Part shown: positions 6,211 to 48,956 of the stretch, piece by piece
Layout of the letters: each line of letters opens with the position of its first letter
Numbering within the stretch: position 1 is the stretch's first letter
Assembly (NCBI GenBank): GCA_014730235.1
Contig: WJIO01000153.1
Location: 1-53,703 of the forward strand
DNA from: Candidatus Poribacteria bacterium
GTDB taxonomy: Bacteria; Poribacteria; DTPJ01; WJIO01
Length of the DNA: 53,703 nucleotides
Direction of reading: 5' to 3'
Program-made: the position numbers and the translations under genes
The notes under the pieces: model-generated
The model's input: only the letters and a program-made list of their open reading frames with translations
What the model was told of the DNA's origin: nothing
The model's database searches: none

Positions 6211-6373
6211 GGCTCTTCCGACTTGAGTGGGGTAAAGATAAGAAACTTCTTTATGCTGTCATTCCTGTGGAAGCAGGAATCTAGTCTTTATGCGGACTAC
6301 TGGATTCCTGCTTCCGCAGGAATGACAAGCTGAGAGCATTTTCAATTATTACCACACTAAACCCGAAAGAATC
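6211..6373. mobile_element. ISL3-like MITE carrying an inverted pair of GTCATTCC REP hairpins
   Basis: Ends GGCTCTTCCGACTTGAGTGGGG ... CCACACTAAACCCGAAAGAATC; 8-bp direct repeat ATTAATAA on both sides; internal inverted pair 6257-6285 / 6299-6327. Confidence 0.85.
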
Positions 6374-6480
6374 ATTAATAATCAGTGATCGCTGATCCGT
6401 GAATTATCAACTGTGAATTGTATTATGAGAGAAGCAAAATATTTTCCTGTAAATATTCTTCGCTAAATGGAGGTGCTGTA

Positions 6481-8667
6481 ATGTCTATTGCTGACACCCT
6501 TGATATATCCCGCAGTAAAGCATCAAAGCGGCGCGTGGCTGAAGCTGTTGATATTCTCCGATACAAAGATGTAAAGAGCGCAACTATAGAACGACTTAAA
6601 ATAACATGGGAAGCTGATGAAAGAGTTAAAGATTTACCCCAACAGCTTCAAATAGGTGAAGGGCTTTATTACCTGCTGGATAATATATCCCTGCCTGTAT
6701 CTGCTGATGATCTGATCCTGGGTCGGATTGTTGACGAAGTTCCTGATGCCGATGGTGAGACATTGCTGGTAAAGACAGCACAGGAATGGCATCGGGGTAT
6801 TCCCCTGTGGATGAAAGATGGTGGTCATGAGTGCTTTGACTGGGAAACACCACTAAAACTTGGCTTGTCTGGCATGGAGAACTTTGCCCAGAAAGAACTG
6901 GACAGGAGGGTTGAAGCTGGAGAAAAAGGAGCACATCTGGATTTCCTCCGGGGAGCAATTCGAATTTACCAGGCTTACAGAAATTTCTCACTTCGCTACG
7001 CAGAAGCCGCAGAGGAAGCTGGATTAATAGATCAATCTAAAAATTGCATGGCTAATGCAGAACATGCCCCGGAAACCTTTGCCGAAGCTTTGCAGCTTAT
7101 GTGGACAATAGGCTTTGTATACTGCGCCATGGCATCATCAAATCCTACCCTTACGTTTGGTCGTATGGATGAACTGCTCTGGGATTATTACGTTTCAGAT
7201 ATTCAGTCCGGATTGTTGACCCGTGAGAAAGCTGGTGACATGATACAGGATTTTTATTGCAAAAATAACCTTATATTGGGCAGGGGTGAACACCAGATGA
7301 GCGGTGGATCGGAAAACGATACAGGATGGCTCAGGAATCTGACTTATGATGCACCCCAATATGTGGTTATTGGTGGTCGTAAGACCGATGGTTCACTTTT
7401 GGCTAACGAACTCACAGAGATTCTCCTGGAAAGGGTTGTGCCAAGATTTGAAAATCCGGTTATGGTACTTCGATACACCAGGGATATGCCGGATCATATA
7501 TGGCGATTAGCCTGTGATAAAATGCGTACAAATTCCAGCTTTATGGTCTACAGCGATGAAAACATCATACCGGCCATGAGCCACTGTGGGATAGATGAAA
7601 AAGATGCACCTACTTATACCATGCACGGATGCAACTGGCCTGATATTCCCGGAAAACAACGACAGGTATCTGGTTATATGCCTGTAATGCCTGAAGTATT
7701 CCTACGGGCTTTCCTGGAAGGTGAAGAAGAACCTGAAAATATAGATGAACTCTATAGGCGTTTTGCCGAAGTTTTCAAGGTTGATATGGAAAATGCTGCT
7801 CAGGGGTATTTAAAATTCCGGGAATCATGGAATAGAGATGATCCCGGACATCTCAGGATAGATGACTGTTTTACTGAAGGACCTATTTCTAATGCCAAAA
7901 GCTGGCTTTTAGGAAGTATTAAATATCCAAGCATAGTATGCGCTATATGCTCTATAGCTTCTCTGGTGGACTGTTTTGCTGCTATAGATGAATTGGTATT
8001 TACCTCACAAAAAATCACTATTGCAGAATTAAGAGAAGCTATAAAGAATAACTTTGATGGCTATGAACAGATAAGACAGCTCTGCCTTAATGCTCCTAAA
8101 TTTGGTCGAGATGATGACCGGGCTGATAGGCATGCTGTTCGTCTGCTTAATGTAATAACAGAAGTGATTGATCAGGTAAGTCATCCTCAGGATGAAGACG
8201 GTTTTATAGTTTTTCGATGCCTGGAGACGGATATGCGCCATATACGCTTTGGAAAAGATACCGGGGCTACAGCCGACGGGCGTTTTGCTGGAAAACCTTT
8301 GAGCGAAAATACATCACCATATCCCGGTTCATGCACAGAGGGTATTACCGCCATGCTTCGCTCTGTGGCTAAAATGCCTTTGCATTACATTAACTCCGGC
8401 GCGTTGAATGTCCGCATGCAAACCAGCATGGTGGAAGGTGAAGAAGGGCTGGACAGAATCTCGTCTCTGTTAAGGACATACTTCGATATGGGTGGTCTGC
8501 AAGTCCAGGTTTCCGTTGCTGATACGGAAGAACTGAAGGATGCCCAGGAACACCCGGAAGAACACAGGGATCTGATGGTCAGGATAACGGGATACAGCGC
8601 AGTCTTTGTTGACATGTGCAAAAAAGCCCAGGACGAGATAATACGTCGCCAGGAAATGGGTATGTAG
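6481..8667 (+). CDS. Glycyl radical enzyme (PFL superfamily), unassigned subclass
   Basis: Gly loop DLMVRITGYS, APKFG.DD and GATADGR motifs, Cys loop MHGCNWP; RBS GGAGG before ATG 6481. Confidence 0.9.
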   Translation: MSIADTLDISRSKASKRRVAEAVDILRYKDVKSATIERLKITWEADERVKDLPQQLQIGEGLYYLLDNISLPVSADDLILGRIVDEVPDADGETLLVKTAQEWHRGIPLWMKDGGHECFDWETPLKLGLSGMENFAQKELDRRVEAGEKGAHLDFLRGAIRIYQAYRNFSLRYAEAAEEAGLIDQSKNCMANAEHAPETFAEALQLMWTIGFVYCAMASSNPTLTFGRMDELLWDYYVSDIQSGLLTREKAGDMIQDFYCKNNLILGRGEHQMSGGSENDTGWLRNLTYDAPQYVVIGGRKTDGSLLANELTEILLERVVPRFENPVMVLRYTRDMPDHIWRLACDKMRTNSSFMVYSDENIIPAMSHCGIDEKDAPTYTMHGCNWPDIPGKQRQVSGYMPVMPEVFLRAFLEGEEEPENIDELYRRFAEVFKVDMENAAQGYLKFRESWNRDDPGHLRIDDCFTEGPISNAKSWLLGSIKYPSIVCAICSIASLVDCFAAIDELVFTSQKITIAELREAIKNNFDGYEQIRQLCLNAPKFGRDDDRADRHAVRLLNVITEVIDQVSHPQDEDGFIVFRCLETDMRHIRFGKDTGATADGRFAGKPLSENTSPYPGSCTEGITAMLRSVAKMPLHYINSGALNVRMQTSMVEGEEGLDRISSLLRTYFDMGGLQVQVSVADTEELKDAQEHPEEHRDLMVRITGYSAVFVDMCKKAQDEIIRRQEMGM

Positions 8668-8672
8668 AAGTT

Positions 8673-9152
8673 ATGACTTATGGTCAGCATGTTAGGTGGG
8701 GAATATTTACATATTTTCTCGCATTTATACCCATAACTATCTGGATATCCTACTCCCAAAATTGGTCTGCAATTCGTTTGTGGGATAGATGGTGGGAGAT
8801 GGTGTTGTGCTTTATACTGTGTATAATTGGTTCTATGATGCCAGACCTGGACATTAAAAGCAAATCGAAAACTGTAGTATATTCCCTATTAATACCTATC
8901 GATCTTGTCCTGATATTATTTATGTATTATCGGGCTGCTGCTATCATAGGTTTTTTTGCTCTGATACCAAACGTTTTAAAGCATCGGGGGATGCTTCATT
9001 CTCCTGTTGCAGCCTTTCTTATACCTGCACCGCTTTTAATTATACCTATATTTCTCACTGGTAAAGTGGATTACAAACAAATTGGTGTATCATATTACGC
9101 CGCTATGGTTCTAGGTTACCTGAGTCATCTTATCACCGATAGAAAGGAATAA
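8673..9152 (+). CDS. Membrane-bound metal-dependent hydrolase (YdjM/DUF457-like)
   Basis: H near the N-terminus, PDLD, HRG..HS, GYLSH...D motifs; several TM segments; start reassigned to ATG 8673. Confidence 0.8.
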   Translation: MTYGQHVRWGIFTYFLAFIPITIWISYSQNWSAIRLWDRWWEMVLCFILCIIGSMMPDLDIKSKSKTVVYSLLIPIDLVLILFMYYRAAAIIGFFALIPNVLKHRGMLHSPVAAFLIPAPLLIIPIFLTGKVDYKQIGVSYYAAMVLGYLSHLITDRKE

Positions 9153-9161
9153 ATATATTTA

Positions 9162-9497
9162 ATGAAAATTTTGGTTTTATTATTATTTTTTACTATTGTG
9201 CTTTCCGGATGTATAGGTTTTTATACAAGCATATCGGATATAAAAGAACATCCCAACGAATACGAAGGAAAAGAAGTAAGCGTCAAAGGACGTGTAATAG
9301 AAACATTCTCTGTACCCTTTGTAAGAAAGGGGATGTTCCAGATAGAGGATAAAACAGGTAAAATATGGGTTATATCCGGAAACCGAATGCCCACAAGAGG
9401 TGATGATATAAAAGTAAAAGGTAAAGTCAAAACAGGTTTCACCATAAGTGGAAAGACTTATGGAACTGTAGTCGTAGAAGGTAAGGAAGAAGGTTAA
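9162..9497 (+). CDS. OB-fold lipoprotein
   Basis: Lipobox LSGC; V.VKG.V ... IED.TGKIWV ... GD.IKVKG pattern. Confidence 0.7.
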   Translation: MKILVLLLFFTIVLSGCIGFYTSISDIKEHPNEYEGKEVSVKGRVIETFSVPFVRKGMFQIEDKTGKIWVISGNRMPTRGDDIKVKGKVKTGFTISGKTYGTVVVEGKEEG

Positions 9498-9524
9498 TAG
9501 ACTAAACTACCGGAGGTGTGTTAA

Positions 9525-10754
9525 ATGAGCCGTCTTTATGCAGGCTTTTTTGTGTTTATCTTGGTTGTTGGATTATGGGGATGCGCTTCTGTTCGAAAAA
9601 CCATTATTGCAGAACAGGAATGGAGCGAAAACTATGCCATGATGGAAGATGTGGAAATTACAGACCCAAAAATGGCTGACGGAAATAAAAGGACAGAGGG
9701 AGAAACTCAGTCGCCTGTTGATTCCAGAGGTACTACAGAATTTACAGAGGCACTGGTTAAATTCCCGGAAAAAAAATCAGTACGCAGGATTGTTCTGTAT
9801 ACATCAAACATAGAAGATATGAGTCTGTATGCAGCAGGTGATGATGAAGGTGTATGGAAACCTCTGGAAGATATAGATAATAATCAGGAAAAAATGCTGG
9901 AATTTGACGTAGGTGTTGATACTGATGCCATAAGAATCCGGGTGCGGGGAACTTCTGATGATGAAAGACTCCCCGGAACTCGTTCCCGTAGCGGCAGAAG
10001 ACGCAGGGCTAAGGGTAAAATACAGGAACTCGAAATTTACGGGTACGTTGATAAAACTGAAACCCCGGGAGCTACAGAATCAGGAAAAGCCTTTGTCACA
10101 ACAGCCGATGGTTCGCTTATTCCTGCTCAACAAGCAGAACCGGAGATTCCACCGGCGGAATTAATGTTGGAAACACCAAAAAACACATATAGCCTTGCAG
10201 AGCCTATACCTGTAAAGGTAAATATAGAGGTAGGAGAAGAACAGCTTGTGGTGCTTGCCTATTCTGTTAAAGATGAGACTATATGCACCAGATTGACCGT
10301 TAAAAACGCCGCTGGGGAAACAATAGCATGCACCAAGCCAAAGCCCAAGATAGATCCCATAAAGCCATATCGCGGGGCGGGTAAACCCGTAAATGTGAGA
10401 AACGCTGAAACTCTGGATGCAGAATCGGTGAAAATTGTGGAAATTGCAGACCTGAAGGAATATTATCCCATAACAGAAGCAGGAACTTACACCGTTCAAA
10501 TGGATATGTCCCTGGAAAATCACACAAGATACGTGGGTAGAATCCAAACCCAGATATCTGATCTGGAGCGAACAATCCGGGATGTAAACAGCAGATCCAA
10601 TTATTCACAGACAGAAAAAGCTGGAATTGTCCAGGGATTAAAGGATGAAATTGAGCAGTTGAAGAAAAAGAAAGGCAAAAGATATATTGTAATTGGTTCA
10701 AAGGGAGAAATGCTTGAACTTAGTTCCAATAAATTGGAATTGACCGTTCAATAA
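9525..10754 (+). CDS. Lipoprotein with a discoidin/F5-8-like domain and a second beta-rich domain
   Basis: Lipobox LWGC; MADGN ... TDAIRIRV ... IQELEIYG pattern; C-terminal EAGTYTVQ strand and helical hairpin. Confidence 0.55.
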   Translation: MSRLYAGFFVFILVVGLWGCASVRKTIIAEQEWSENYAMMEDVEITDPKMADGNKRTEGETQSPVDSRGTTEFTEALVKFPEKKSVRRIVLYTSNIEDMSLYAAGDDEGVWKPLEDIDNNQEKMLEFDVGVDTDAIRIRVRGTSDDERLPGTRSRSGRRRRAKGKIQELEIYGYVDKTETPGATESGKAFVTTADGSLIPAQQAEPEIPPAELMLETPKNTYSLAEPIPVKVNIEVGEEQLVVLAYSVKDETICTRLTVKNAAGETIACTKPKPKIDPIKPYRGAGKPVNVRNAETLDAESVKIVEIADLKEYYPITEAGTYTVQMDMSLENHTRYVGRIQTQISDLERTIRDVNSRSNYSQTEKAGIVQGLKDEIEQLKKKKGKRYIVIGSKGEMLELSSNKLELTVQ

Positions 10755-10757
10755 ATT

Positions 10758-10792
10758 TATACAGGTTGGTTTTATTAAAACCAACCTGTATA
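10758..10792. terminator. Hairpin, probable terminator
   Basis: 16-bp arms TATACAGGTTGGTTTT / AAAACCAACCTGTATA immediately after the stop at 10754. Confidence 0.6.
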
Positions 10793-10859
10793 GTAATCGT
10801 TAAAAAATGAATATATTTACCACACTAAAACCGTAAGAACCTCATTTTTTAACGATTAC
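10793..10859. repeat. Miniature element with 18-bp inverted ends enclosing a solo ISL3-like MITE end
   Basis: GTAATCGTTAAAAAATGA ... TCATTTTTTAACGATTAC around CCACACTAAAACCGTAAGAACC; the same left end recurs at 27704. Confidence 0.65.
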
Positions 10860-10984
10860 GTATAATAAACATTTTTGCCTTAAGCATTGCAATATTTGGC
10901 TTTAGCTAATTTTAACAAATCCCAGCAAGCTTATAAAATTTCCTTTAATCAACATCGTTCCATGTAAGGAGGAACCCCAGCACA

Positions 10985-11749
10985 ATGAAAAAGATAATTT
11001 TATCCATTTCCATAACATTTATTTTAATATTATCACTATATGTATATTCTCAGGAAAATTCATTAACCGGTGAAGAAATTATGAAAAAGGTGGATGAAAA
11101 TGCTTTTTATGAAAAGATAGAGTATAGAGGCAAAATGATCATAAAAAAAGGTGATAAGTCCAGATTTAAAACCATGCATGTCTATGCAGAAGGAGAAGAA
11201 AAAGCCTTAATTGAATTCACAAATCCCGGTGACGCCGGAACAAAATATTTAAAACTTTCGAATGAATTGTGGATATATTTCCCCGACGCGGAGGAAATAG
11301 TAAAAATTTCCGGACATATGCTGAGAGAAAGCATGATGGGCAGTGATTTTTCCTATGAGGATATGATGGAAAATGAAAAACTGCTGGAAAAATATGATGT
11401 GGATGTTATAGGAAGCGAAATTGTTAAACAGGCAGAAGAGGAGAGGAGTTGCTATGTTCTGGAGCTAAATGCGAAGGAAAAGGATGTGACCTATGCAAAG
11501 CGAAAAGTCTGGGTAGACAAAGAACGCTTTGTGGTTTTAAAAGGTCAGCTATTTGCCCTTTCCGGAAAATTACTTAAAGAAATGGTTGTCAACAAAGTTC
11601 AAAAATATGATAACAGGTATTTTGCCACAGAACTGGTCATGACAAACAAGCTAATAGATGATAGTTCAACGGTTTTCCAGATGGAAGAGATAGATTTTGA
11701 TGTTGATTTTCCTGACCGAATTTTCTCAAAACGTAGCCTTGAAAGATAA
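10985..11749 (+). CDS. Outer membrane lipoprotein-sorting (LolA-like) protein
   Basis: Signal peptide; F..P...GTKYL, LWIYFP, MMGSDFSYEDM and F..R.LER motifs. Confidence 0.85.
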   Translation: MKKIILSISITFILILSLYVYSQENSLTGEEIMKKVDENAFYEKIEYRGKMIIKKGDKSRFKTMHVYAEGEEKALIEFTNPGDAGTKYLKLSNELWIYFPDAEEIVKISGHMLRESMMGSDFSYEDMMENEKLLEKYDVDVIGSEIVKQAEEERSCYVLELNAKEKDVTYAKRKVWVDKERFVVLKGQLFALSGKLLKEMVVNKVQKYDNRYFATELVMTNKLIDDSSTVFQMEEIDFDVDFPDRIFSKRSLER

Positions 11750-11770
11750 TTAACCAATTTAAAAAGTTGC

Positions 11771-11799
11771 TTGACAACCTTGATTGGCCATTGTATAAT
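11771..11799 (+). promoter_or_regulatory. Consensus sigma70 promoter
   Basis: Perfect TTGACA-17 bp-TATAAT. Confidence 0.85.
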
Positions 11800-11915
11800 G
11801 TAAACAGAGATACAGGCATAGATAGGTGGTGGCAGCAAGAAGCAATCATAAAGCTTTCATCTTACCTTTGAATTTAATTGCGGGTTGTGGTCTGAATTGA
11901 GGAGGTATTTCTACC

Positions 11916-14506: not shown

Positions 14507-14547
14507 AAGCCAGACATTGCCCTATATAGGGCAATGTCTGGCTTTTT
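14507..14547 (+). terminator. Intrinsic terminator (perfect 38-bp palindrome)
   Basis: AAGCCAGACATTGCCCTAT-ATAGGGCAATGTCTGGCTT followed by TTT. Confidence 0.75.
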
Positions 14548-14695
14548 CACCTACCTTAGTATTTACTAATTTTCTATCAATAAATTTAAAATCAATTTCA
14601 AAGCTATACCCGAAAGAACCAAAACTTTTAGATTAAAGGCTCTGTAAAAACTCTGTCTTTCAGGTAAAATACATGATAAAACACTTTGCATAATA

Positions 14696-14758: not shown

Positions 14759-17677
14759 ATGATTAAAAGACTAATACCGTTAGCAATTTTAATATGCTTT
14801 ATAAGTGCTTGTGGCATAAAGTCAGTATTCCATCGAGAGCCGCCACCTGTAAAACCCGAAGTGGTAAGAGAAGCCGACTGGACTGTTGATTTTAACGATG
14901 TATATTTCGTTGATGAAAACACCGGCTGGATAGTTGGACAGGAAGGAACAATAATCCATACCATTAATGGCGGTAAAAATTGGCAAAATCAGGATAGCGG
15001 CACAGATTCAACATTGAATAAAGTCGAATTCAATAATGAAAAAGACGGATGGGTCGTTGGCGATAACGGAATACTACTCCATACCATAGACGGCGGCAGA
15101 AATTGGCGAGTGATAAAACTCACCGATGCGAATTTAACTGATTTACATTTTGCAGATGCATATCGCGGCTGGATAACTGGCCAGGGTGGAGCACTTTATT
15201 TTACTCCCGATGGTGGTAAAACATGGAATTTTAAATCTTCCGGCATTGGAGAAGCTTTGCACAGTGTTTTCTTTTCAAGTCGACGGGAAGGATGGATACT
15301 CGCTGAATTTGGCCTTACTTTACATACTGAAGATGGCGGTAAAACATGGGATATGCAGAGGATAGATACCGTTCATAGTTTCCTTGAAACCCAATTCGTT
15401 GATGAACTTACCGGCTGGACAGTAGGCACAGGAGCAACTATTTACCATACAAAAGACGGTGGTAACATATGGGAATCCCAGGACGGTGAAATACCCGATC
15501 ACCATTATGCCATATTTGACCTGCATTTCACAGACGATATAAACGGTTGGCTTGTATCCCAGGATGGCACAGTATCTCATACTAATGATGCTGGCGAAAA
15601 CTGGAGCAAGCAGGAAACGGGAACCCGGAACGATCTCTTTGCAGTACATGCCATTGATAAAAACAACGTGTGGGTTGCAGGCTCTGGTGGAACTATACTA
15701 CATTCCACCGACGGCGGCGCAAACTGGAATATAGAGGCAGAAACCACGTCTGAAAACCTATCCGGTGTTGACGTTTCAGAAACAGGTAGCGGGTGGGCGG
15801 TGGGACATCGTGGAGCCATCTACCGTACAAATGACGGCGGAAAAAACTGGGAACGGCAGAACAGCGGAACGGTGGCAGGACTTAACAAGGTCTATGCTGT
15901 GGATGATAACCAGGCCTGGGCTATCGGTGAAGCCGGTAATATACTCCACACTGAGGATGGTGAAAGCTGGGAGATACAAAAGGGTAATGACTGGCTTGGG
16001 CTTCACGACGTTCAGTTCCTGAGCAAAAACAGCGGCTGGGCTGTAGGTGACATTGGTGGAGTATTTTTTACAAATGATGGCGGTGAAAATTGGATTGAAC
16101 AGCGCGGCTTTATCTTTGAATCCCTGAGGGCATTGCAGTTTGTCACCCCCAAAAAAGGCTGGATAGTGGGTTGGCCAGGTAAAATTCTTCATACTACAGA
16201 CGGTGGTAAAACATGGAAACAGCAAGATGGAGATACATATAACGAGCTTTACTCTGTATGCTTTGTTGACGAAAAAACAGGCTGGATATCCGGACAATAT
16301 GGCGTAGTGTTACACACAGAAGATGCTGGAAAAACCTGGGTAGAGCAGAATACGGGAACGGATGTCAACCTTAATAAAATATACTTCGCATCGCCAAAAG
16401 CCGGTATTGCTGTAGGGGATAAAGGCATTTTAATCGTAACACAGGACGGTGGAAAAACATGGAAAAGATACGACAGCGGAACTACCGAAAATCTAAAGGA
16501 TATAAGCGTTGGAAAAGATAAACTCATCGCTGTAGGTGAAAATGGTGTAGCTGTGGATTATAAAATACCATCCGTTACAAATTATTCCAGGCGAAAGCTG
16601 GTAATTCAGGAAAACTCAAAGCCTCAAAAATCAGATTTAGACGTGGTTTGGGAACAATCCAAAACCTCTGGTAATTCTATTCTCAATCGAGTATACTTTA
16701 TTGATGCTTTAAATGGCTGGTCGGTGGGAAATAAGAATATCATATTACATACAACAGACGGCGGTGGTAACTGGAAAATACAGAAATCTCCGATTGAAGC
16801 ATCCATCGTCGGGCTTAAGTTTATCTCATCAAAATTGGGCTGGATTATTTCAGATAACGCAACTGTTTTATACACCAGCGACGGTGGAAACACATGGAGT
16901 GTCCAGAACGCCGATTCCCGGCCGGTAATGACTGTTCTTGATGCCAACCTGTCGCCGGTAAAGGTAAGCTATGAGTTAAACGCAGCATATTTTCCCGTAT
17001 CCAGCGAAGGATGGGCTGTGGGCAACAGCGGAGCCATACTCCATAACATTGACGGTGGAACAGAATGGACACCCCAGGAAAGCCAGAGCGGCGCTCCATT
17101 GAAAGATATACATTTCCCTGACCAGAATCACGCCTGGGTGGTGGGTTCATGGGGTGCTATTCTATACACCAATGATGCAGGCGAAAATTGGCTGGTGCAA
17201 ACCAGTAATACAGGCTATGATCTGGAAGGCGTATATTTCATAAGCCCTGATGAAGGCTGGGTAGTAGGCAAATACGGTATAATCCTTCACACTAATGACA
17301 GCGGCGTGGAATGGTCATCCCAGGACAGCGGTGTAGATGAACATCTATATTCTGTATGCTTTGTGAATAAAAACGAAGGCTGGGCTGTTGGACAGAATGG
17401 AACTGTAATCCATACATCCGACGGAGGTATGAGTTGGCAGCAGGAAGGTTCTGGAACTGATAAAGATTTATATCATATAATTTATGTGAAAGACATTGGT
17501 TTGGTAGCTGTAGGCGCAGATTCTACTGTTATTATGAGATATGTTGATTCTTCAAGATTAGTTAAAATTTTTGGCTCTTCCGGGTTCAGTATGGTAAAGA
17601 TAAGAAACTTCCTTATGCCGTCATTCCTGCGAAAACCAACAGCCAATAAGTTGGGTAAAATTTTCAATTATAACTAA
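14759..17677 (+). CDS. YCF48/BNR (Asp-box) repeat multi-propeller lipoprotein
   Basis: Lipobox ISAC; about 20 repeats of L..V.F.....GW.VG..G.I.HT.DGG..W; C-terminal tail encoded by a MITE. Confidence 0.9.
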   Translation: MIKRLIPLAILICFISACGIKSVFHREPPPVKPEVVREADWTVDFNDVYFVDENTGWIVGQEGTIIHTINGGKNWQNQDSGTDSTLNKVEFNNEKDGWVVGDNGILLHTIDGGRNWRVIKLTDANLTDLHFADAYRGWITGQGGALYFTPDGGKTWNFKSSGIGEALHSVFFSSRREGWILAEFGLTLHTEDGGKTWDMQRIDTVHSFLETQFVDELTGWTVGTGATIYHTKDGGNIWESQDGEIPDHHYAIFDLHFTDDINGWLVSQDGTVSHTNDAGENWSKQETGTRNDLFAVHAIDKNNVWVAGSGGTILHSTDGGANWNIEAETTSENLSGVDVSETGSGWAVGHRGAIYRTNDGGKNWERQNSGTVAGLNKVYAVDDNQAWAIGEAGNILHTEDGESWEIQKGNDWLGLHDVQFLSKNSGWAVGDIGGVFFTNDGGENWIEQRGFIFESLRALQFVTPKKGWIVGWPGKILHTTDGGKTWKQQDGDTYNELYSVCFVDEKTGWISGQYGVVLHTEDAGKTWVEQNTGTDVNLNKIYFASPKAGIAVGDKGILIVTQDGGKTWKRYDSGTTENLKDISVGKDKLIAVGENGVAVDYKIPSVTNYSRRKLVIQENSKPQKSDLDVVWEQSKTSGNSILNRVYFIDALNGWSVGNKNIILHTTDGGGNWKIQKSPIEASIVGLKFISSKLGWIISDNATVLYTSDGGNTWSVQNADSRPVMTVLDANLSPVKVSYELNAAYFPVSSEGWAVGNSGAILHNIDGGTEWTPQESQSGAPLKDIHFPDQNHAWVVGSWGAILYTNDAGENWLVQTSNTGYDLEGVYFISPDEGWVVGKYGIILHTNDSGVEWSSQDSGVDEHLYSVCFVNKNEGWAVGQNGTVIHTSDGGMSWQQEGSGTDKDLYHIIYVKDIGLVAVGADSTVIMRYVDSSRLVKIFGSSGFSMVKIRNFLMPSFLRKPTANKLGKIFNYN

Positions 17678-17690
17678 ATCCGGAAGAACC
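17546..17690. mobile_element. ISL3-like MITE (plus an extra end fragment) overlapping the 3' end of the YCF48-like gene
   Basis: GGCTCTTCCGGGTTCAGTATGGTAAAGATAAGAAACTTC at 17573, half REP GTCATTCCTGCGAAA, right end CTAAATCCGGAAGAACC at 17690, degenerate end at 17546; no clear target duplication. Confidence 0.75.
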
Positions 17691-28580: not shown

Positions 28581-28719
28581 GATTCTTCCGGGTTTGGTGT
28601 GGAAATATTGAAAAATTTTCTAATCATGTCATTCCTGCGAAAGCAGGAATGACAAACAGAGGATATTTTCCCTTATTTAGAATATGTTTAATCATTTCCA
28701 CATTCAAGTCGGATGAGCC
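28581..28719. mobile_element. ISL3-like MITE with a single REP hairpin
   Basis: Ends GATTCTTCCGGGTTTGGTGTGG ... CCACATTCAAGTCGGATGAGCC; 8-bp duplication AAGAAATA; TGTCATTCCTGC-GAAA-GCAGGAATGACA at 28627-28654. Confidence 0.85.
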
Positions 28720-35464: not shown

Positions 35465-35629
35465 CTAAAACCAGATGTTGCAGTGCTTAAATAGACACTA
35501 GCAAATGAAAATGCTACCAGGCTGTCATTCCTGCGAAACTCTTATTCTTTTTTGCTCAAGCTTTTTCAAAAAGCTTGAAGCAGGTTCATCTGTTTCTTTA
35601 TGCTGAATTCTTATAAACATTGGTTTTAG
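35465..35629. repeat. REP hairpin with the 41-nt loop insert, inside a different pair of inverted ends
   Basis: CTAAAACCAGATGTT ... AACATTGGTTTTAG enclosing TGTCATTCCTGCG[41 nt]GAAGCAGG. Confidence 0.65.
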
Positions 35630-36989: not shown

Positions 36990-36998
36990 GATAAACCT

Positions 36999-41823: not shown

Positions 41824-42507
41824 CTAATCCTCATCTTCGTCTTCGCCGCTCATTTCCGATTCCTGTGTTACCAGTCTGGATTCTCCTGTTGTAAAGAAGC
41901 GCACCAGGGAAAACGAATGACGTACCATTTCGTTTATCATACTATCTACTTTTGACATAAAATAAGCATAAGCTATCATAGCGGGAATTGCAACTGTCAG
42001 ACCGGCAGCAGTAGTCAAAAGTGCATAGGAAACTCCCCTTGCAACAGTAGTCGCTGTGTCAGGTCTGTCTGTTCTCCAAACAGCACCAAAAGAAATAAAC
42101 ATACCGGAAACTGTACCTAAAAGCCCGATAATAACAGCTATTCCACCGAGAAAAGACAGGGTTTTCAGATACTTCTGTAAACGGAGCTTTTCCAAATTTG
42201 CGGTTTGATTAATGACCGCCCATAAGTCCGGTTTTCTTAAGTACCTGTTTTTTATTGCGACTTTTATTATCTTTGTAAGAGGGCCCGGTCGTGAATCACA
42301 TAGAGAAAGGGCAAGGTCCAGCTTTCCTTTTTCAAGCACTCTATAGATCCTTGCGATGAAACGACGAGGCATGAGTTTTCTCCTGCGCAGATTATATAAA
42401 CGTTCAAGAATAATAGCATGGGAAAACAGAGAGCAAAAAAGTAGAGGTATAAGTAAAGGTCCACCATTGCCCAGTTGAGAAAATCCACCTGTTATAGCAT
42501 CAATCAT
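41824..42507 (-). CDS. MotA/TolQ/ExbB proton-channel family protein
   Basis: GG....PL..CS ... IILER; GLLGTV.GM..SF; ALLTTA.GL.VAIPA. Confidence 0.92.
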   Translation of the reverse strand: MIDAITGGFSQLGNGGPLLIPLLFCSLFSHAIILERLYNLRRRKLMPRRFIARIYRVLEKGKLDLALSLCDSRPGPLTKIIKVAIKNRYLRKPDLWAVINQTANLEKLRLQKYLKTLSFLGGIAVIIGLLGTVSGMFISFGAVWRTDRPDTATTVARGVSYALLTTAAGLTVAIPAMIAYAYFMSKVDSMINEMVRHSFSLVRFFTTGESRLVTQESEMSGEDEDED

Positions 42508-42579
42508 AATTATTTAAACATATTCAATGTAAAATACAAGTTGTTTTAAATTCAAACTGTGCATTTAATTTATTGTTTT

Positions 42580-42671
42580 GGTTCTTCCAACTTGAGTGTG
42601 GAAATAAAAAAATTTTTCTAATTAAGAAAAAATCTCATCTTTTTGTCATTCCTGCTTTTGCAGGAATGACA
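42580..42671. mobile_element. Truncated ISL3-like MITE with a REP hairpin
   Basis: GGTTCTTCCAACTTGAGTGTGGAAAT ...; colinear with the reverse complement of 28581-28719 through TGTCATTCCTGC-TTTT-GCAGGAATGACA; second end absent. Confidence 0.75.
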
Positions 42672-42685
42672 GGCTAGGGTTCTAG

Positions 42686-42721
42686 GCTTGTAGGAACACG
42701 GCATGCCGTGTTCCTACAAGC
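42686..42721. repeat. GTAG-type REP palindrome
   Basis: Perfect 36-bp palindrome GCTT-GTAGGAACACGGCATGCCGTGTTCCTAC-AAGC. Confidence 0.8.
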
Positions 42722-42784
42722 GCATAAATAATATGTCTTTTAAAAAGTGCGAAAGTATAGTCTTTAGAGATTCTATTTATATAG

Positions 42785-44545
42785 TTAAAATTTCAAAACT
42801 AAACCCAAATCAATCATCCAATCTGGCAATCCGTATTCTTTCCAGATTTGATATTTATCCTCTCCAAAATAAAATTGGCTTGAAGCAAAGACCTTCGCAT
42901 ATTTTCCAAAGCTTTTTGATATACCCGGTTTCACAAGGAAATAGCCAGGAAGTGTTTCTTCGCCATTCAATTCTGTATATCTTATTCCCCAGAATTCACC
43001 ATCAACAGAAAACTCCAGACCCAGCGGGGCTTCATAGGTAAAGCCAAGAAGGCCTTTATTATTTGGTCTGTATGGAATATTAATGTCGTTTTCCTGCTGG
43101 TGAAATTCTTGTATATATTCAACGTTATGTTTTAAACGATCTCCAAATGCTGAACCTTCCCATCCTGCTTTAAAACCATATATGCGAGAACTTTCCAGAG
43201 AAATAGGCTTCCAGGATAAGGTATCATCCTGAATATTTTCAAATATTACCAGGTCATCAACTTCACGATCAAAAGCTTCGGCAGTTATTGCGAATTTTCT
43301 TGTTATTCTATACTGCAAAGATGCTTTTATATCCCAGGATCTTTCCAGACTTAAAGATGGATTTAATCGCATATAATTATTCTGGATATATAAATCTCTA
43401 AGGTTCTGTCTAATGACATTTCTTTCAACACCAAATTTAAGTATAGCATTTCTACCTAGTCTCGATGTAAATATAAGATTTGGATTCAGATATATATCCG
43501 GTTCCCATCCTTCACCATTTTCAGAACCTTTACGGGCATCAAATAATAAATTCAATTCAGCGCTTAAGACAAATATCAGGAATCTTATATACTGGTCACG
43601 AACATATAGCTTTACTGTTGCTTCCTGTGCTTCTTCGTTTTCATTTTCTCCATCAAGATATGATATGTCTCCGCCCATTTCAATGGGATTGGATTTAGAT
43701 AGTAACGCGCTAAATCCTAATCCTGCCTTGATATCCAACGCACCATGAGAATCAGATGTAACGGGTTCGGTCATTTGAAGGTTTGTAATATCCAAATTAA
43801 TAGATGCGTCAAAATTATCTGAAAGTTTTTGATCCAGATCCAGATACGCGTTTGCTATTGACCTATCGTTCTCATAATTTGCACCAGTATTGCTTAAATA
43901 AGCCATATCTTTGGCTTTATAATTCACATCGACTTTCAGATTTGTATTCTCAGTCTGATATGTAATAGCTCCCCGCAGTTTATCAATATTAAATTCTTCC
44001 AGATTATTATTTTCATTACTGACCATCTCTGGTGTTCTTTCTTTTCTTAAAGATGTTCTACCAGCTTCAACTAATGCCTCTGCATTGCCAAATCCCCTGA
44101 AGAATAGCATCTGGTATGATAAAACTACAGGAACACCCGAATAAGCCTTAATAGAAACCAGGAAATCCCGCTCTGATTCCTCTTTAGTATCACTCAGTTT
44201 TCCCGGAAGAGATGTAGGGGGAAGATACCAGGGACGCTCTTTTCGTTTCAATGGAGTATATATTCTGGAATCAGGCTTAGTAAAGCTGTGAAATTTCTCC
44301 TTTGGAATTTTAAGCTGGGTGGTATCCAGAATTTCTATATTAACAGTCGGAAGATCCATTATTTTGTCTTCATCGTCTTCGTCTTCCTTTATTTCCTCCT
44401 GGCTGTATGAATTTGCTAGAGCGAGAGTCAGGAAACCAACAAATAAGATACAAAACAATAAATATACAAATATTTTGTGGCTTGTTTTGGATCTCAGGTT
44501 TTGGGGCCTATCTCTCACCCGCATCACCTCCTGGAGCAGTCTCAA
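42785..44545 (-). CDS. Outer-membrane beta-barrel, TonB-dependent-receptor-like
   Basis: Hydrophobic N-terminal segment, amphipathic strands, NPSL.LERS motif, C-terminal DLGLVLKF; start codon uncertain. Confidence 0.7.
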   Translation of the reverse strand: MRLLQEVMRVRDRPQNLRSKTSHKIFVYLLFCILFVGFLTLALANSYSQEEIKEDEDDEDKIMDLPTVNIEILDTTQLKIPKEKFHSFTKPDSRIYTPLKRKERPWYLPPTSLPGKLSDTKEESERDFLVSIKAYSGVPVVLSYQMLFFRGFGNAEALVEAGRTSLRKERTPEMVSNENNNLEEFNIDKLRGAITYQTENTNLKVDVNYKAKDMAYLSNTGANYENDRSIANAYLDLDQKLSDNFDASINLDITNLQMTEPVTSDSHGALDIKAGLGFSALLSKSNPIEMGGDISYLDGENENEEAQEATVKLYVRDQYIRFLIFVLSAELNLLFDARKGSENGEGWEPDIYLNPNLIFTSRLGRNAILKFGVERNVIRQNLRDLYIQNNYMRLNPSLSLERSWDIKASLQYRITRKFAITAEAFDREVDDLVIFENIQDDTLSWKPISLESSRIYGFKAGWEGSAFGDRLKHNVEYIQEFHQQENDINIPYRPNNKGLLGFTYEAPLGLEFSVDGEFWGIRYTELNGEETLPGYFLVKPGISKSFGKYAKVFASSQFYFGEDKYQIWKEYGLPDWMIDLGLVLKF

Positions 44546-47500
44546 GAGCCTCTATTTTCTCCAACTGTTTACGGGCAAAATCTATGGCTGTATCCCAATC
44601 CGGCTTTTTCTTGTCGTAGTATTCACCACCTGGATTAGCATAATCTTTAATTATCTTGCGATACCAGATAGCTGCGTCGCTCCATCTTCCCAGTCTTTCA
44701 TAACTGTATCCGGCTCTTGAAAGAGCGTATATTCCCAGGTCAGGATCAAAATATACAAGAGAAACCCTGAGATAAGCCTCAGCCGCTTCCTCGTATTGGC
44801 CCATTTCATATAGACCTTCAGCCTTGTATAATTGGGCAGAGGCTTCAATTTCTTTGCTATAAGTTCCGGGATTTTTCAGTATAACATCAAAAGCTTCCAC
44901 TGCCTCTTTATATCTACCCATCTCATGCAAAACTCTACCCAGTAGCAATTGAGCATTTGGTGAATCCTCACTCTCTGGATAATTTTTCAAAAGTCTCCTG
45001 TAAGCTTCTTCAGCATCCTGCCATTTAAGTAAATCCTGGTTTGCCTGACCTATAGCAAAAAGCGCCCTGGGTGCTTCTACGCTATTAGGATAAGATTTCA
45101 CCACATTTTCATATGCATTTATGGATTTTTGCAGATCACGCTCCGGGTTATTCTTATCATACCAGCATTGCCCTATTTCATAAGCAGATTTTGAAGCTGA
45201 AGATGAGTTAGGGTATGACGCAACAGTCTTTTCAAAAGCACTTATGGCCTGAGAATATGAGCCAAGTTGCTTGTAACTTATTCCAATATTATACTGAGCC
45301 CGGGAAGCTGATGAGCTTTTGGGATATGTATTAATAACAGCTTGGTATTCAGCAATAGCTTGAGCATAATTATTTCTGTCATAGTTATAATTACCTAATT
45401 CCATCTGAACAATAGGTGAATATTCGCTTTGTGGATATATCCTGAGCAACATTCGATAAGCAGTCAGCGCTTCCCTGCTGTTGCCTGCCTGTTCATAGGC
45501 CTGGGCGATAGAGTATTGAGCATCATCAGAAAGGTCATGGGTAGGATAATTATCAATAAGTTGCTGATAAGATTTGATAGCGGTGATATAATCAGAAAGG
45601 TTATAATATGCATCAGCTATTTTAAACATGGCTTCGGGTCTGAGATCGCTGTTTTTATAATCTCTTGTAATACGTTCATATTGAGATATAGCTTCTTCAT
45701 ATTTATTCATCTCAAAATACGAGTCACCCATCAGAGCCAAAGCTTTATCCACAAGTTCAGTACCTTTATTATTTTCAATTAAAGCTTTTGCCGTTTGTAT
45801 AGCTTCCTGATAGTCCTTTTGTTTGTATCTGCACCATGCTATCCAGTATTGAGAATCATCAACTAAATTGCTCTGAGGATAAAGAGTAATAACAACCCGG
45901 AAAGCCTCAATCGCAGAGGAATAATTGTTGATATTAATAAATGCGTAACCAATGTAATATTGGGCTTTTCCGCTGACGCTGCTGCCCTTATAATCGGATG
46001 TAACCTCCTGCCAGGAATTTATTGCCTGGTTGTAAAGAGAATTCCTTGATCTGGTATTTTCTGTTGATCTGGCCTGGTCGAAATAAGTTAACCCTATGCC
46101 ATATTGGCTCTGATCATTCCATTCACCATCAGGATTGTTATTTATCAGGTCGGTGTATTCTTTCCGTGCATCGGCGTATTTATTTTGCGAGTATAAAGAT
46201 TCGGCAATATAAAATCTGGCTTTATATACAAATTCACTGTCGGGATATTGCTGTTGAAATTTTCTAGCAGCGTTTATTGCATCTTCATAGCGATCCAGTT
46301 CAAATAATGAAACTATTTTCCAGTATAATGCGGCATCGGATTGGGCACTGGTCATATCCGTATTCGGATATTCCTGAAGGAATCTGTCAACAGCGCTAAC
46401 GGTTTCGTTATATTTGTTAATCTGGAAATACGAGGTAGCTATTCTGAAAAGAGCCTGAGGTTTAAATTCAGTTTTAGGGAACTTCGTCAAAAGCAAATCG
46501 AAAGCGTCTATTGCTTCCTGATATTGCTTTAGCTCAAGATAAGCCAGCGCGCTCCAATATGCCGCCCTGTCGCCATATTCTGAAGCGACGTTTACCCTGG
46601 AGAATTCCAGCAAAGCCGAATTATAATCCTGCTGTTGGAAGCGACACTGACCCATATGGAATCTGGTAGCATCCTCCCATTCTGTATCACGATATGTCAG
46701 CACCAGCTTGAATTCTTTATAAGCTTTGGAGTATTCCTCCTCCATAAGATACGTGTAAGCTATGCTGTACCTGGCATCATCAGCAACACGGCTGGTAGGA
46801 TAAATCTCAATAACTTTGCCATATTCATATTTTGCTTCAGCATATTTCTTTTGAGCATATAATACCTCAGCTATACCATATTGAGCTTCTGCGGCTCCAT
46901 CTTTAAATTCAGGATAATCATGCAAATATTTATCAAAACTTTGTCTTGCTTTATCCAGGTTACCCAATTCGGTATAAGCTTGACCCATTTTAAGAAGTGC
47001 ATCGGCGGCTATTTTCCGGGAATCGCTGTATTTATCCAGAATCATCTGGTAAACAGAAACAGCTTCTTCCCATTTTTTCAAAGCAAAAAGGCTTTCACCG
47101 GCTAAATATGCCGAATCTGGAGCTCTTTTGCTTTCAGGAAACTGCTCAACCAGCTTAATGAAAGATTGATATGATGCCTGATAACGTCGAAGATTATATA
47201 GAGACCAGGCCTTCGAATATATTGTAGTCTCTGTCTCTTTAGCTTCGGGATATTTAACCAAAAGCTGGTCATAATATTCTATGGCTTCTTCGTATCTAGC
47301 GAGATTATATAAAGCCTCACCTACCTGGTAAAGGACAAAAGACTCAATTTCCGGATCCTCTATTTGCCCGATAATATCTTTATAGGCTTGTATAGCCTCT
47401 TCGTATCTGCCTTGTTGATACCATGAATCAGCTATTCCCCGAAGGGCGTCTATCCTCAATTCACTGCCAGGATAATCGTTTAATAAAAGTTTATATTCCT

Positions 47501-47753
47501 CAACAGCCTTTGAATATTCCCCTTCATAATAAAAGCAATAGCCTATAAAAAGACGGGCATCATCAGCTTTATCGCTTTTGGGATATGTTTCAATGAATTT
47601 CTCAAACTGCTCACGAGCCATCTTGTAAGCCCGTTCCTGGAAAAGATTATAGGCAAAAGCATAATCCCTCGCTTCATCGGCATTGGAATTTGAAACAATG
47701 CAAAAAGCCAACGCTATCATAAGAACAAGTGTGGAAATGTAACGTATATCCAT
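44508..47753 (-). CDS. Large exported all-TPR protein (CpoB/BamD-like repeats)
   Basis: Signal peptide, then more than 20 tandem A.Y.IG..Y.....Y..A...Y...I..YP.S units. Confidence 0.92.
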   Translation of the reverse strand: MDIRYISTLVLMIALAFCIVSNSNADEARDYAFAYNLFQERAYKMAREQFEKFIETYPKSDKADDARLFIGYCFYYEGEYSKAVEEYKLLLNDYPGSELRIDALRGIADSWYQQGRYEEAIQAYKDIIGQIEDPEIESFVLYQVGEALYNLARYEEAIEYYDQLLVKYPEAKETETTIYSKAWSLYNLRRYQASYQSFIKLVEQFPESKRAPDSAYLAGESLFALKKWEEAVSVYQMILDKYSDSRKIAADALLKMGQAYTELGNLDKARQSFDKYLHDYPEFKDGAAEAQYGIAEVLYAQKKYAEAKYEYGKVIEIYPTSRVADDARYSIAYTYLMEEEYSKAYKEFKLVLTYRDTEWEDATRFHMGQCRFQQQDYNSALLEFSRVNVASEYGDRAAYWSALAYLELKQYQEAIDAFDLLLTKFPKTEFKPQALFRIATSYFQINKYNETVSAVDRFLQEYPNTDMTSAQSDAALYWKIVSLFELDRYEDAINAARKFQQQYPDSEFVYKARFYIAESLYSQNKYADARKEYTDLINNNPDGEWNDQSQYGIGLTYFDQARSTENTRSRNSLYNQAINSWQEVTSDYKGSSVSGKAQYYIGYAFININNYSSAIEAFRVVITLYPQSNLVDDSQYWIAWCRYKQKDYQEAIQTAKALIENNKGTELVDKALALMGDSYFEMNKYEEAISQYERITRDYKNSDLRPEAMFKIADAYYNLSDYITAIKSYQQLIDNYPTHDLSDDAQYSIAQAYEQAGNSREALTAYRMLLRIYPQSEYSPIVQMELGNYNYDRNNYAQAIAEYQAVINTYPKSSSASRAQYNIGISYKQLGSYSQAISAFEKTVASYPNSSSASKSAYEIGQCWYDKNNPERDLQKSINAYENVVKSYPNSVEAPRALFAIGQANQDLLKWQDAEEAYRRLLKNYPESEDSPNAQLLLGRVLHEMGRYKEAVEAFDVILKNPGTYSKEIEASAQLYKAEGLYEMGQYEEAAEAYLRVSLVYFDPDLGIYALSRAGYSYERLGRWSDAAIWYRKIIKDYANPGGEYYDKKKPDWDTAIDFARKQLEKIEALETAPGGDAGER

Positions 47754-47811
47754 ATTTAGCAGATACCTCACTGTTCATACCTCTCTTTGCTCTAAATCAA
47801 AGTTAATTGCT

Positions 47812-47841
47812 ATTATAACATTCAGAGGGTGTGATTTTCAA
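47812..47841 (-). promoter_or_regulatory. Putative sigma70 promoter for the TPR/barrel operon
   Basis: TTGAAA-18 bp-TATAAT with a TG extended -10. Confidence 0.6.
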
Positions 47842-47892
47842 GCACTTTTTAGGTGTATGTATAATAAAGAAAAGCATCTATATAATTATTAT

Positions 47893-47956
47893 GATTCTTC
47901 CGGATTTAGTGTGGTTATAATTGAAACTTCTTTACCAAATTGAACCCGGAAGAGCC
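47893..47956. mobile_element. Minimal 64-bp empty ISL3-like MITE
   Basis: GATTCTTCCGGATTTAGTGTGG ... GAACCCGGAAGAGCC flanked by the direct repeat ATAATTATTAT (47882-47892 and 47957-47967). Confidence 0.8.
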
Positions 47957-47979
47957 ATAATTATTATCTAAAATGATTT

Positions 47980-48645
47980 TTAGTAATTACCATTATCCAG
48001 AAGTAAAAAAGGAATTGTACGTAGAACGATCTTGAAATAAAGCTTTATTGATCTGTTTTTTATGTAATCTATATCGTATTTTACTATACTCTCAAATTCC
48101 AGATTAGATCCGCCGTTAACTTGGGCTAAACCGGTTATTCCGGGTTTTATTTTAAGCCTCTGTTTATGATAATCTGAATAAAGCTCATATTCTGATAAAA
48201 TAGGTGCTCTGGGACCTACTAGACTCATATCACCTTTTATTACATTAATAAGCTGAGGAAGTTCATCAAGACCCAAGGGCCTTATGTATTTCCCTATTCT
48301 GGTGATCCGAGTGTCATTTTTCATTTTTACTACAGGCTCAACAGAACCATCGCTGTTTTTCCTGTATTTTTGAGTCATCTTATCAGCATTTTGACACATA
48401 CTGCGAAATTTATACATCCTGAAACATTTACCATTTTCTCCAATACGCTTTCCCTTGAAGAAAACCTCTCCAGGTGACTCCATTTTAATGAGTGCAGCCA
48501 GAAATGTAAACATAGGAGTTAATGCAATAAGTCCTAAAACAGAAAATACAATGTCACTTAGTCTTATAACGTAATCATCAAAAGACCGATTTTTGCCAGT
48601 AGATGAATCAATTGATGAACCGATACCGGCAGTATAATCTGCCAT
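47980..48645 (-). CDS. Bacterial sugar transferase (priming phosphoglycosyl transferase)
   Basis: R..DI, F.MYKFRSM, D.RITRIG, LDELPQLINV.KGDMSLVGPR, KPGITGLAQV. Confidence 0.93.
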   Translation of the reverse strand: MADYTAGIGSSIDSSTGKNRSFDDYVIRLSDIVFSVLGLIALTPMFTFLAALIKMESPGEVFFKGKRIGENGKCFRMYKFRSMCQNADKMTQKYRKNSDGSVEPVVKMKNDTRITRIGKYIRPLGLDELPQLINVIKGDMSLVGPRAPILSEYELYSDYHKQRLKIKPGITGLAQVNGGSNLEFESIVKYDIDYIKNRSIKLYFKIVLRTIPFLLLDNGNY

Positions 48646-48751
48646 TAGATACCTCCTGTTTAAACTTAAAGAGCAGCAGGAAAATCAAAAAACCAAAACA
48701 TTTCTGAGGCATATAAAACCTATATTAGTTAAAGATATTTCAAAAACTTGC

Positions 48752-48956
48752 GGTTCTTCCGGGTTTAATGTGGCTATAATTGAAAATTCTCTCAGTTTGT
48801 CATTACTGCGAAACTCTTATTCCTTTTTGCTCAAGCTTTTTCAAAAAGCTTGAAGCAGGAATCCAGTAGATCCGCATAAAACTCGGATTCCTGATTTTGC
48901 AGGAATGACAGTATAAAGAAGTTTCTTATCTTTACCCCACTCAAGCCGGAAAAGCC
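48752..48956. mobile_element. ISL3-like MITE with a REP pair and the 41-nt loop insert
   Basis: Reverse-complement homologue of 6211-6373 plus an insert at 48811-48851; flanks AAACTTGC / AAATTTGC (7/8). Confidence 0.85.

Follow-up and report, generated by a model that had tools for sequence, protein, structure and literature searches.

Intergenic DNA in the window (the whole 53,703-nt stretch that was analysed) repeatedly carries short units with inverted ends around a palindromic core, and the question is whether that core is part of the units or was taken up by them from a different kind of repeat. An earlier note on this DNA described MITE shells with ISL3-like ends that had captured a REP element and were spreading it. 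Our analysis makes it very likely that the family consists of ISL3-type MITEs in which the palindrome is built in, and that the size variants are derivatives of one ancestor.

Scanning the window for the end motif with up to two mismatches gave 12 matches, against 0.03 expected from shuffled sequence. Of these, 11 belong to the family; the remaining one, at 52611, lies within an open reading frame and scores no better than chance in nhmmer (E=22). With a profile of the end, nhmmer recovered 12 ends in the window at E<=0.007, among them a shortened one at 17673-17690. The family end is 22 nt long, and the elements measure 64-205 bp. These ends set out five two-ended elements, a copy with a single end and a solo end, and a fragment without terminal inverted repeats (35503-35584), a family member absent from the earlier list, brings the total in 53.7 kb to seven copy loci plus the solo end. 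Searches of the whole window by nhmmer with each copy as query found no members beyond these. Six copies had been credited with shared ends; five do have both, and the sixth, 42580-42671, has a single end only. Copies or remnants occupy 8 of the 17 intergenic gaps of at least 40 bp (9 when a weak one is counted), and the family is short, non-coding, bounded by inverted ends, flanked by target duplications and present in several copies, as MITEs are.

Two elements share a double-hairpin architecture. The full two-ended element at 6211-6373 (163 bp, plus strand, ends placed by motif and nhmmer) runs from an 'A' end (GGCTCTTCCGACTTGAGTGGGG) through an A subterminal arm, an inverted hairpin pair and a B subterminal arm to a 'B' end; its fold is a single long hairpin (-39.5 kcal/mol, z -8.2). 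The two-ended element at 48752-48956 (205 bp, minus strand; 85% over 91 nt to 6206-6296) has the same architecture in reversed orientation, and the loop of one of its hairpins carries a 41-nt palindromic insert; the inverted palindrome pairs lie within 6257-6327 and 48798-48913. The fragment 35503-35584 (plus strand, nhmmer E=6.8e-16) contains a B subterminal arm and half a hairpin with a 41-nt insert in its loop, and is 90% identical to 48778-48859 over 82 nt although it has no recognisable end on either side.

A second subfamily is represented by the two-ended element at 28581-28719 (139 bp, minus strand, supported by alignment, fold and duplication). Its single central hairpin (GTCATTCCTGC GAAA GCAGGAATGAC) lies between a B-like end on one side and, on the other, a longer 'C' arm that leads to an A-like end; the element folds at -27.8 kcal/mol (z -5.9). 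The one-ended copy at 42580-42671 (plus strand, 84% to 28627-28689) has the A-like end, C arm and single hairpin; the other arm is absent and a unique perfect palindrome (42686-42721) comes next. The 26-nt palindrome is identical in these two copies (28628-28653 and 42645-42670).

The remaining elements are reduced. At 47893-47956 (64 bp, minus strand, recognised by end motif and flanking duplication) a minimal element lacks the hairpin altogether, and a 20-nt linker separates its B end from its A end. The two-ended element at 17573-17690 (118 bp, plus strand, ends by nhmmer) starts with an A end and half a hairpin, after which about 21 nt of unrelated sequence lead to a B end short by 4 nt. 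The first 105 nt of this element supply the final 35 codons, together with the stop, of the open reading frame at 14759-17677. The range of cargo described earlier, from none through one hairpin and an inverted pair to a pair with an insert, is borne out by the sequences of the copies. Three solo ends had also been claimed, of which one is solid: a B-type end without partner at 10820-10841 (minus strand, nhmmer E=0.0035), which forms the loop between the arms, at 10793-10810 and 10842-10859, of a perfect 18-bp inverted repeat. The second, placed at 14604-14620, is weak, and corresponds to a possible decayed solo end at 14596-14620 (minus strand, 78% to the reference, nhmmer E=8.4); the third, at 17546, escaped nhmmer even at E<=100 and we take it as chance.

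Target duplications are perfect (8/8) at two elements, with ATTAATAA at 6203-6210 and 6374-6381 around the 163-bp element and AAGAAATA around the 139-bp element. The flanks of the 205-bp element, AAACTTGC and AAATTTGC, agree at 7 of 8 positions, and an exact 11-bp repeat, ATAATTATTAT, abuts both ends of the 64-bp element, giving 7/8 in the 8-bp register. A flanking match of at least 7/8 is therefore present in four of the five two-ended elements, the null probability of such a match between random intergenic 8-mers being 0.0014 per element. The 118-bp element has none (flanks 4/8). The two ends of any one element agree at just 14-16 of 22 positions and the copies are 60-90% identical to one another; this may be an ancient family that has ceased to move.

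Terminal inverted repeats of the ISL3 family are about 15-40 bp long and begin GG(C/T)TCTT, as the family ends do. A scan of contigs from other genomes for the end pattern gave at least 82 loci, and the window's 22-nt end also bounds at least 19 distinct two-ended elements of 1.3-1.46 kb in other genomes and phyla. Among the matches listed, 8 of the 15 full-length relatives with both flanks readable have perfect 8-bp duplications, and 9 of the 35 open reading frames scanned carry PF01610, the ISL3 DDE domain, and a further 2 have an ISL3 HTH or zinc-ribbon domain. By tblastn, ISL3 transposase DNA adjoins the end in 30 of the 82 loci listed. One end of a complete insertion sequence in a Zixiibacteriota MAG (L063) matches the window's B end at 21 of 22 positions, and its other end has the CCGACTT stretch of the window's A end. 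Thus the same end occurs on bona fide ISL3 insertion sequences with 8-bp duplications, which bears out the ISL3 assignment of the earlier note, and on these sequence comparisons the reading of the window elements as ISL3-type MITEs is well supported.

The autonomous ISL3 elements (L014, L026, L028, L036, L046, L054, L063, L067, L075 and others) share with the family a nearly identical end (0-3 differences in 22) and the 8-bp duplication, but they reach 1.3-1.46 kb and encode a transposase, whereas the window elements are far shorter and non-coding. None of those listed is the direct parent, because inward of the ends they show no relation to the subterminal arms of the window elements, and the palindrome pattern had no match in the 82 loci listed. 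No ISL3 transposase or PF01610 domain was found among the 36 open reading frames of the window, nor any tblastn match in it, as is expected of a non-autonomous derivative.

In the scheme that we favour, an ISL3 DDE transposase would recognise the two 22-bp terminal inverted repeats of an element. Elements of 64-205 bp are too short to encode anything, and the enzyme would be supplied from elsewhere in the genome or may now be extinct. Having bound the ends, it would move the element into AT-rich intergenic DNA, where repair of the staggered cut would leave the 8-bp duplication. The central GTCATTCCTGC..GCAGGAATGAC palindrome would be an inherited inner part that makes the whole unit fold as one long hairpin. 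Alignment places the difference between single and double hairpin forms in the segment between two direct copies of GCAGGAAT, the loss of which would convert the double form to the single; likewise from alignment, a larger deletion may have given the 64-bp form, a replacement the 118-bp form, and a 41-nt insertion in the hairpin loop a subline of two members. We infer trans-mobilisation in the source genome and, from the aligned copies, this direction of internal change. Points against the scheme are the absence of an ISL3 transposase from the window, the 118-bp element without a duplication, the 11-bp repeat where 8 bp would be expected, the poor agreement between paired ends, and the fragment at 35503, which retains its interior at 90% identity with neither end.

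In both subfamilies the palindrome lies 25 nt inward of the B end, which argues for one origin and against repeated capture. The subterminal arms are about 60-65% alike between subfamilies and the palindrome is better conserved than they are, which would fit constraint and, equally, later homogenisation or acquisition. The same excess of conservation over the surrounding arms favours the account given in the earlier note, in which the palindrome began as a separate REP or REPIN, of the kind ordinarily mobilised by a RAYT (HUH/Y1) enzyme, and was captured and spread by an ISL3-type shell. We consider this account improbable, and the equivalent position of the palindrome in the two subfamilies speaks against it.

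In the available text of PMC3337134 and PMC3733652, REPIN/RAYT systems and tagged REPs also have short intergenic palindromes, sometimes in inverted pairs with a spacer, and the window palindrome, as a 20-40 nt palindrome often found as an inverted pair with a spacer, has this form. The double form, with its two inverted hairpins 13-17 nt apart, resembles a REPIN as defined in the part of PMC3337134 consulted, and GTAG occurs in the spacer of both doublet copies. REPs likewise fold into a longer hairpin, and the dimers found regularly inside longer palindromes in Anabaena variabilis and Halothiobacillus neapolitanus are a precedent, as far as the accessible sections of PMC3733652 describe them. 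However, the REP tag in that source is an unpaired GTAG or CGTC at one palindrome end. The singlet hairpins (28581 and 42580) have neither, GTAG is confined to the doublet spacers, and there it is a single 4-mer, common by descent.

Unlike REPs, the window palindrome always lies within a unit bounded by DDE-type inverted ends and flanked by target duplications; within the window, 0 of 9 palindrome 10-mers occur outside family copies, so that it does not stand alone as REPs do. Among the 36 window open reading frames there is no Y1/RAYT or other transposase domain, in contrast to REPIN/RAYT systems with their tagged repeats. The other intergenic palindromes of the window are every one unique in sequence, and thus the window holds no second repeat family. 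With all nine 10-mers inside copies, an equivalent position and no RAYT gene in the window, the claim of a captured independent REP is not sustained.

The translation of the 139-bp copy (48 aa) had 3 matches at E<=0.001 among 1.84 billion representative proteins; none spans the end-encoded parts, and this 48-aa search found no whole-element relatives. The best match, P0003, is a spurious repeat-ORF matching the palindrome core only, and its arrays of a similar core in a different organism, one rich in GC, lend something to the idea of an independent repeat. A broader proposal treats the palindrome as an independent REPIN-like module, held uniform either by selection or by a dedicated enzyme, that travels inside ISL3 shells; in different phyla such shells would each gain the palindromic repeats of their own genome, and the short elements in four other genomes described below, with their differing hairpin-rich interiors, are in keeping with this. 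We hold the proposal to be improbable; if true, DDE and HUH mobilisation would be joined in a mobile element of two layers. Rfam at gathering thresholds gave no match in the whole window, and blastn in distant mode with the 163-bp copy gave none in a plasmid collection. Full-text literature searches with the end and palindrome strings returned, among the matches listed, primer or oligonucleotide coincidences and nothing on these elements, and those on the ISL3 family, inverted repeats and 8 bp returned nothing related.

It is quite unlikely, in our view, that the elements are domesticated modules more than active transposons, kept by the host with their hairpin conserved as terminators, RNA-stabilising hairpins or weak promoters. 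Occupation of about half of the intergenic gaps would suit such use, as would the C-terminal 35 codons and stop that one copy gives to a gene, a terminator-like site in the 6211 copy (one, against 0.1 expected) and an outward-facing promoter-like ATGACA-16/17-(AATTAT/TATCTT/AATATT) that recurs in the arms of three copies. However, the promoter-like matches (9/12) were no commoner than in shuffles in scans around four copies, a T run is mostly absent after the hairpins, and the 64-bp copy has no hairpin. Host use is in any case compatible with the ISL3-MITE explanation and no true alternative to it. That the short units never moved as such, and that internal deletions simply wore down full-length ISL3 copies where they stood, is hardly credible. 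The solo end (10820), the one-ended copy (42580) and the divergence among copies would fit such decay, but internal junctions and arms are shared between separate loci (6211/48752, 85% over 91 nt; 28581/42580, 84% over 63 nt) at which copies have their own target duplications, which independent decay would not produce, and tblastn found no transposase remnant anywhere in the window.

The ISL3-type MITE family described here is a further case of a kind already described in Microcystis and Methanosarcina. In the accessible text of PMC11448079, Microcystis aeruginosa has a 187-nt ISL3-type MITE (MITE families are listed in the part of PMC2779907 available) that is likewise short, non-coding and folded as a stem-loop, with an 8-nt target duplication and a high copy number. 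Its inverted ends begin GGCTCTTC, as ISL3 elements do, and for the start of Microcystis ISL3 ends that text states GGCTCTTCG. It differs in that its genome also contains an autonomous ISL3 partner whose ends match, where the window has none, and further in a conserved end of 9 nt as against 22 nt and in its interior sequence; variants in hairpin number, found in the window family, are not described for it in that text. The ISMac21 (ISL3)-derived MITE of Methanosarcina acetivorans (179 bp) is similar, by its description in the portion of PMC3852290 at hand, in its ISL3 origin and 22-nt inverted repeats, and different in being archaeal, with 6 copies and a listed duplication of 7 bp.

Our understanding of how ISL3-derived MITEs work is unchanged by this family. 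It is a clean, dense example, outstanding for its density (8/17 gaps) and for a 64-bp copy pared down almost to its ends. The units account for much of the intergenic repetition and for one odd gene end, the 3' part of that gene being rewritten by a copy, and are thus a help to annotation. Additionally, as a set of forms shortened in nature, they could be used to ask what is required by an ISL3 transposase beyond the 22-bp ends. Among the matches listed, four other genomes have short elements bounded on both sides by the same ends but unrelated in their interiors (L007/L049, 350 bp; L009, 367 bp; L070, 187 bp; L081, 232 bp, with a perfect duplication); these are Nitrospirae, Deltaproteobacteria, Actinomycetota and Hydrogenedentota MAGs, and the interiors differ from one another and are all hairpin-rich.

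The earlier note, from reading six copies, claimed shared ends for a family of short elements in the window, and this observation was largely right: with up to two mismatches allowed, its end motif matched the window 12 times against 0.03 expected in dinucleotide-preserving shuffles, and 11 of the 12 matches are family ends. The twelfth, within an ORF at 52611, was rejected because an end-derived profile scored it at chance level (E=22). This profile recovered 12 ends in the window at E<=0.007, among them a shortened one (17673-17690) overlooked by the motif. Five of the six claimed copies are two-ended elements, at 6211-6373 (163 bp), 17573-17690 (118 bp), 28581-28719 (139 bp), 47893-47956 (64 bp) and 48752-48956 (205 bp), whereas the sixth, at 42580-42671, has a single end and a hairpin. 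Among the proposed solo ends, that at 10820-10841 is solid, but that at 14604-14620 is weak (E=8.4) and that at 17546 went undetected even at E<=100. Additionally, a fragment without recognisable ends at 35503-35584 shares 90% identity across 82 nt with interior sequence of the 48752 copy (copies are named by start coordinate). When the seven copies were each taken as an nhmmer query, no additional members appeared in the window.

No transposase domain was found among the 36 main ORFs of the window, and tblastn with four ISL3 transposases as queries gave no match there. Elements with an ISL3 transposase and the same ends, for which the earlier note had proposed a search, are present in other genomes. 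Running the end pattern over genome contigs returned at least 82 loci, all from genomes other than the host's; among the matches listed, hosts include Actinomycetota, Gammaproteobacteria, Nitrospirota, Eisenbacteria, Zixiibacteriota and others. Some loci are chance matches within ordinary genes, and many others were unscorable, lying no more than ~140 bp from a contig end with the interior directed off the contig. Among the matches listed, the matched 22-mers were less variable than the pattern permits, mostly reading GG(C/T)TCTTCCG..TT..GTGTGG followed by GT; at least 19 distinct elements of 1.3-1.46 kb had a second, inverted end (up to four mismatches to the consensus), and perfect 8-bp duplications flanked 8 of the 15 such elements with both flanks readable. 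In the same listed matches, PF01610, the ISL3 DDE domain, occurred in 9 of 35 ORFs from inside the matches, two more had ISL3 HTH or zinc-ribbon domains only, and tblastn detected ISL3 transposase DNA at 30 of the 82 loci.

A complete IS from a Zixiibacteriota MAG (locus L063) has one end identical at 21 of 22 positions to the window's B-type end, and its other end has a CCGACTT stretch in common with the A-type end. Such a pair fits the design of each window element, in which the two 22-nt terminal inverted repeats (A and B) differ. In subterminal sequence none of the fetched ISs is related to the arms of the window elements, so none of them is their parent. As a separate observation, five loci in one Gammaproteobacteria MAG (L006, L012, L031, L048, L072) and two in another (L001, L032) have an ISL3 end that lies ~115-140 bp short of the contig end and points outward, as is usual where a multi-copy IS interrupts the assembly.

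The duplication length expected of the ISL3 family is 8 bp. In this register the flanks match at 8/8 positions for the 6211 (ATTAATAA) and 28581 (AAGAAATA) copies and at 7/8 for the 48752 (AAACTTGC/AAATTTGC) and 47893 copies. There are two exceptions: the 47893 copy has an exact abutting repeat of 11 bp (ATAATTATTAT) rather than 8 bp, and the 17573 copy, matching at 4/8, has no duplication. Since random pairs of intergenic 8-mers from the window reach at least 7/8 with a probability of only 0.0014, the target duplications are genuine and demonstrate insertion of the small units themselves. Ends, duplications and autonomous relatives in other genomes all back the ISL3-type MITE interpretation, which is well supported.

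The same 22-nt ends also bound short transposase-less units elsewhere: an Actinomycetota MAG has them at 350-351 bp (L007:2001-2351 and L049:616-965), a Nitrospirae MAG at 367 bp (L009), a Deltaproteobacteria MAG at 187 bp (L070) and a Hydrogenedentota MAG at 232 bp (L081:301-532), the last flanked by a perfect duplication. Their hairpin-rich interiors show no relation to one another or to the window elements, so MITEs arise repeatedly from this ISL3 subgroup. ISL3-type MITEs are already in print, and the window family adds another example. PMC11448079 describes a 187-nt MITE of Microcystis aeruginosa with GGCTCTTCG ends and 8-nt duplications, matched to ISL3 elements of 1,215 bp that the same genome carries; PMC2779907 counts MITEs and ISL3 elements in strain NIES-843, and a table in PMC3852290 lists a 179-bp ISMac21-derived MITE in Methanosarcina acetivorans. 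Among the matches listed, no account of this particular family was found in the ISL3 and MITE literature (main texts), and a full-text string search for family sequences gave coincidences only.

Alignment of the seven copies separated two subfamilies. Members of the first (6211, 17573, 47893, 48752 and the 35503 fragment) are built on A and B arms, those of the second (28581 and 42580) on a B-like arm paired with a longer one, C. The palindrome begins 25 nt in from the B-type end in either subfamily. Two direct copies of GCAGGAAT bound the stretch by which the single-hairpin form falls short of the double-hairpin form, and otherwise the two are equal. In the 64-bp form nothing remains between the arms, the 118-bp form has half a hairpin and then ~21 nt of other sequence, and the 205-bp form carries 41 extra nt, themselves palindromic (core AAGCTTTTTCAAAAAGCTT), within a hairpin loop. 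Folding gives a single continuous long hairpin for the double form rather than two small ones (-39.5 kcal/mol, z -8.2), and the single form likewise folds along its whole length (-27.8 kcal/mol, z -5.9). The simplest reading of these sequences is that one ancestral MITE with a palindromic core would have diversified through internal deletions and one insertion. The 41-nt insert is common to 35527-35584 and 48802-48859, copies 90% alike, and the 35503 fragment lacks both ends and retains the interior; because it has the same insert, the insert-bearing variant was copied after the insertion.

The earlier note had inferred that the inner palindrome is an independent REP captured by an ISL3-type shell. 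Nothing in the window supports this: palindrome 10-mers occur nine times, always within family copies, all three matches to the full palindrome pattern also lie within copies, and the palindrome has an equivalent position in both subfamilies. Capture would accord with the palindrome being conserved better than the arms, since it is identical in the second subfamily's two members and near-identical in the first, with the similarity of arms between subfamilies at only ~60-65%. The doublet also resembles a REPIN as defined in PMC3337134, GTAG stands in the spacer of both doublets, and PMC3733652 reports two species in which REP dimers regularly lie within longer palindromes. Additionally, the translated 139-bp element had three matches among 1.84 billion representative proteins, the best being a 478-aa predicted protein from a GC-rich source (P0003) with arrays of IPACAGMT- and VIPAKAGIQ-type peptides. 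The ORF is spurious and runs through tandem palindromic repeats with a core similar to the hairpin in the window, so palindromes of this general shape exist alone elsewhere. None of these points, however, shows independent mobility in this genome, and descent from a single MITE is the simpler alternative.

Other strong intergenic palindromes in the window lie after genes and are each unique, so the window has no separate family of repeated palindromes. Long perfect palindromes after genes (17-20 bp arms, 0-2 nt loops), at 1716-1757, 10758-10792, 14507-14544 and 42686-42721, are probably gene-specific terminators; the last abuts the expected place of the 42580 copy's missing arm. No Rfam match was found in the window.

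A copy or remnant occupies 8 of the window's 17 intergenic gaps of at least 40 bp (3,549 bp in total), or nine counting the weak 14604-14620 end. All copies lie outside genes except that at 17573, which overlaps the 3' end of ORF 14759-17677, encoding a 972-aa BNR/Ycf48-like repeat protein. Positions 17573-17677 supply its last 35 codons and stop (tail GSSGFSMV...NYN*), and the native 3' end may be lost, because this copy is without a target duplication. The same gene also contains tandem coding repeats of ~123 nt (14899-17439), seven to ten in number and diverged (60-75% identity); these are ordinary protein repeats, separate from the MITE family.

The arms of three copies hold an outward promoter-like motif (6322-6349, 6235-6262, 28604-28632, 48776-48803 and 48905-48932), with a hairpin-derived ATGACA as first hexamer and AATTAT, TATCTT or AATATT 16-17 nt on; it matches 9/12 consensus positions and is no commoner than in shuffles. 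The 6211 copy has one terminator-like site, a consensus match at chance level or close to it. A perfect 18-bp inverted repeat at 10793-10859 (GTAATCGTTAAAAAATGA / TCATTTTTTAACGATTAC) encloses the solo end at 10820-10841 in its loop and, together with the neighbouring terminator-like hairpin, folds at -30.1 kcal/mol (z -9.2); the flank of this end is duplicated in inverted orientation, where a direct duplication is expected.
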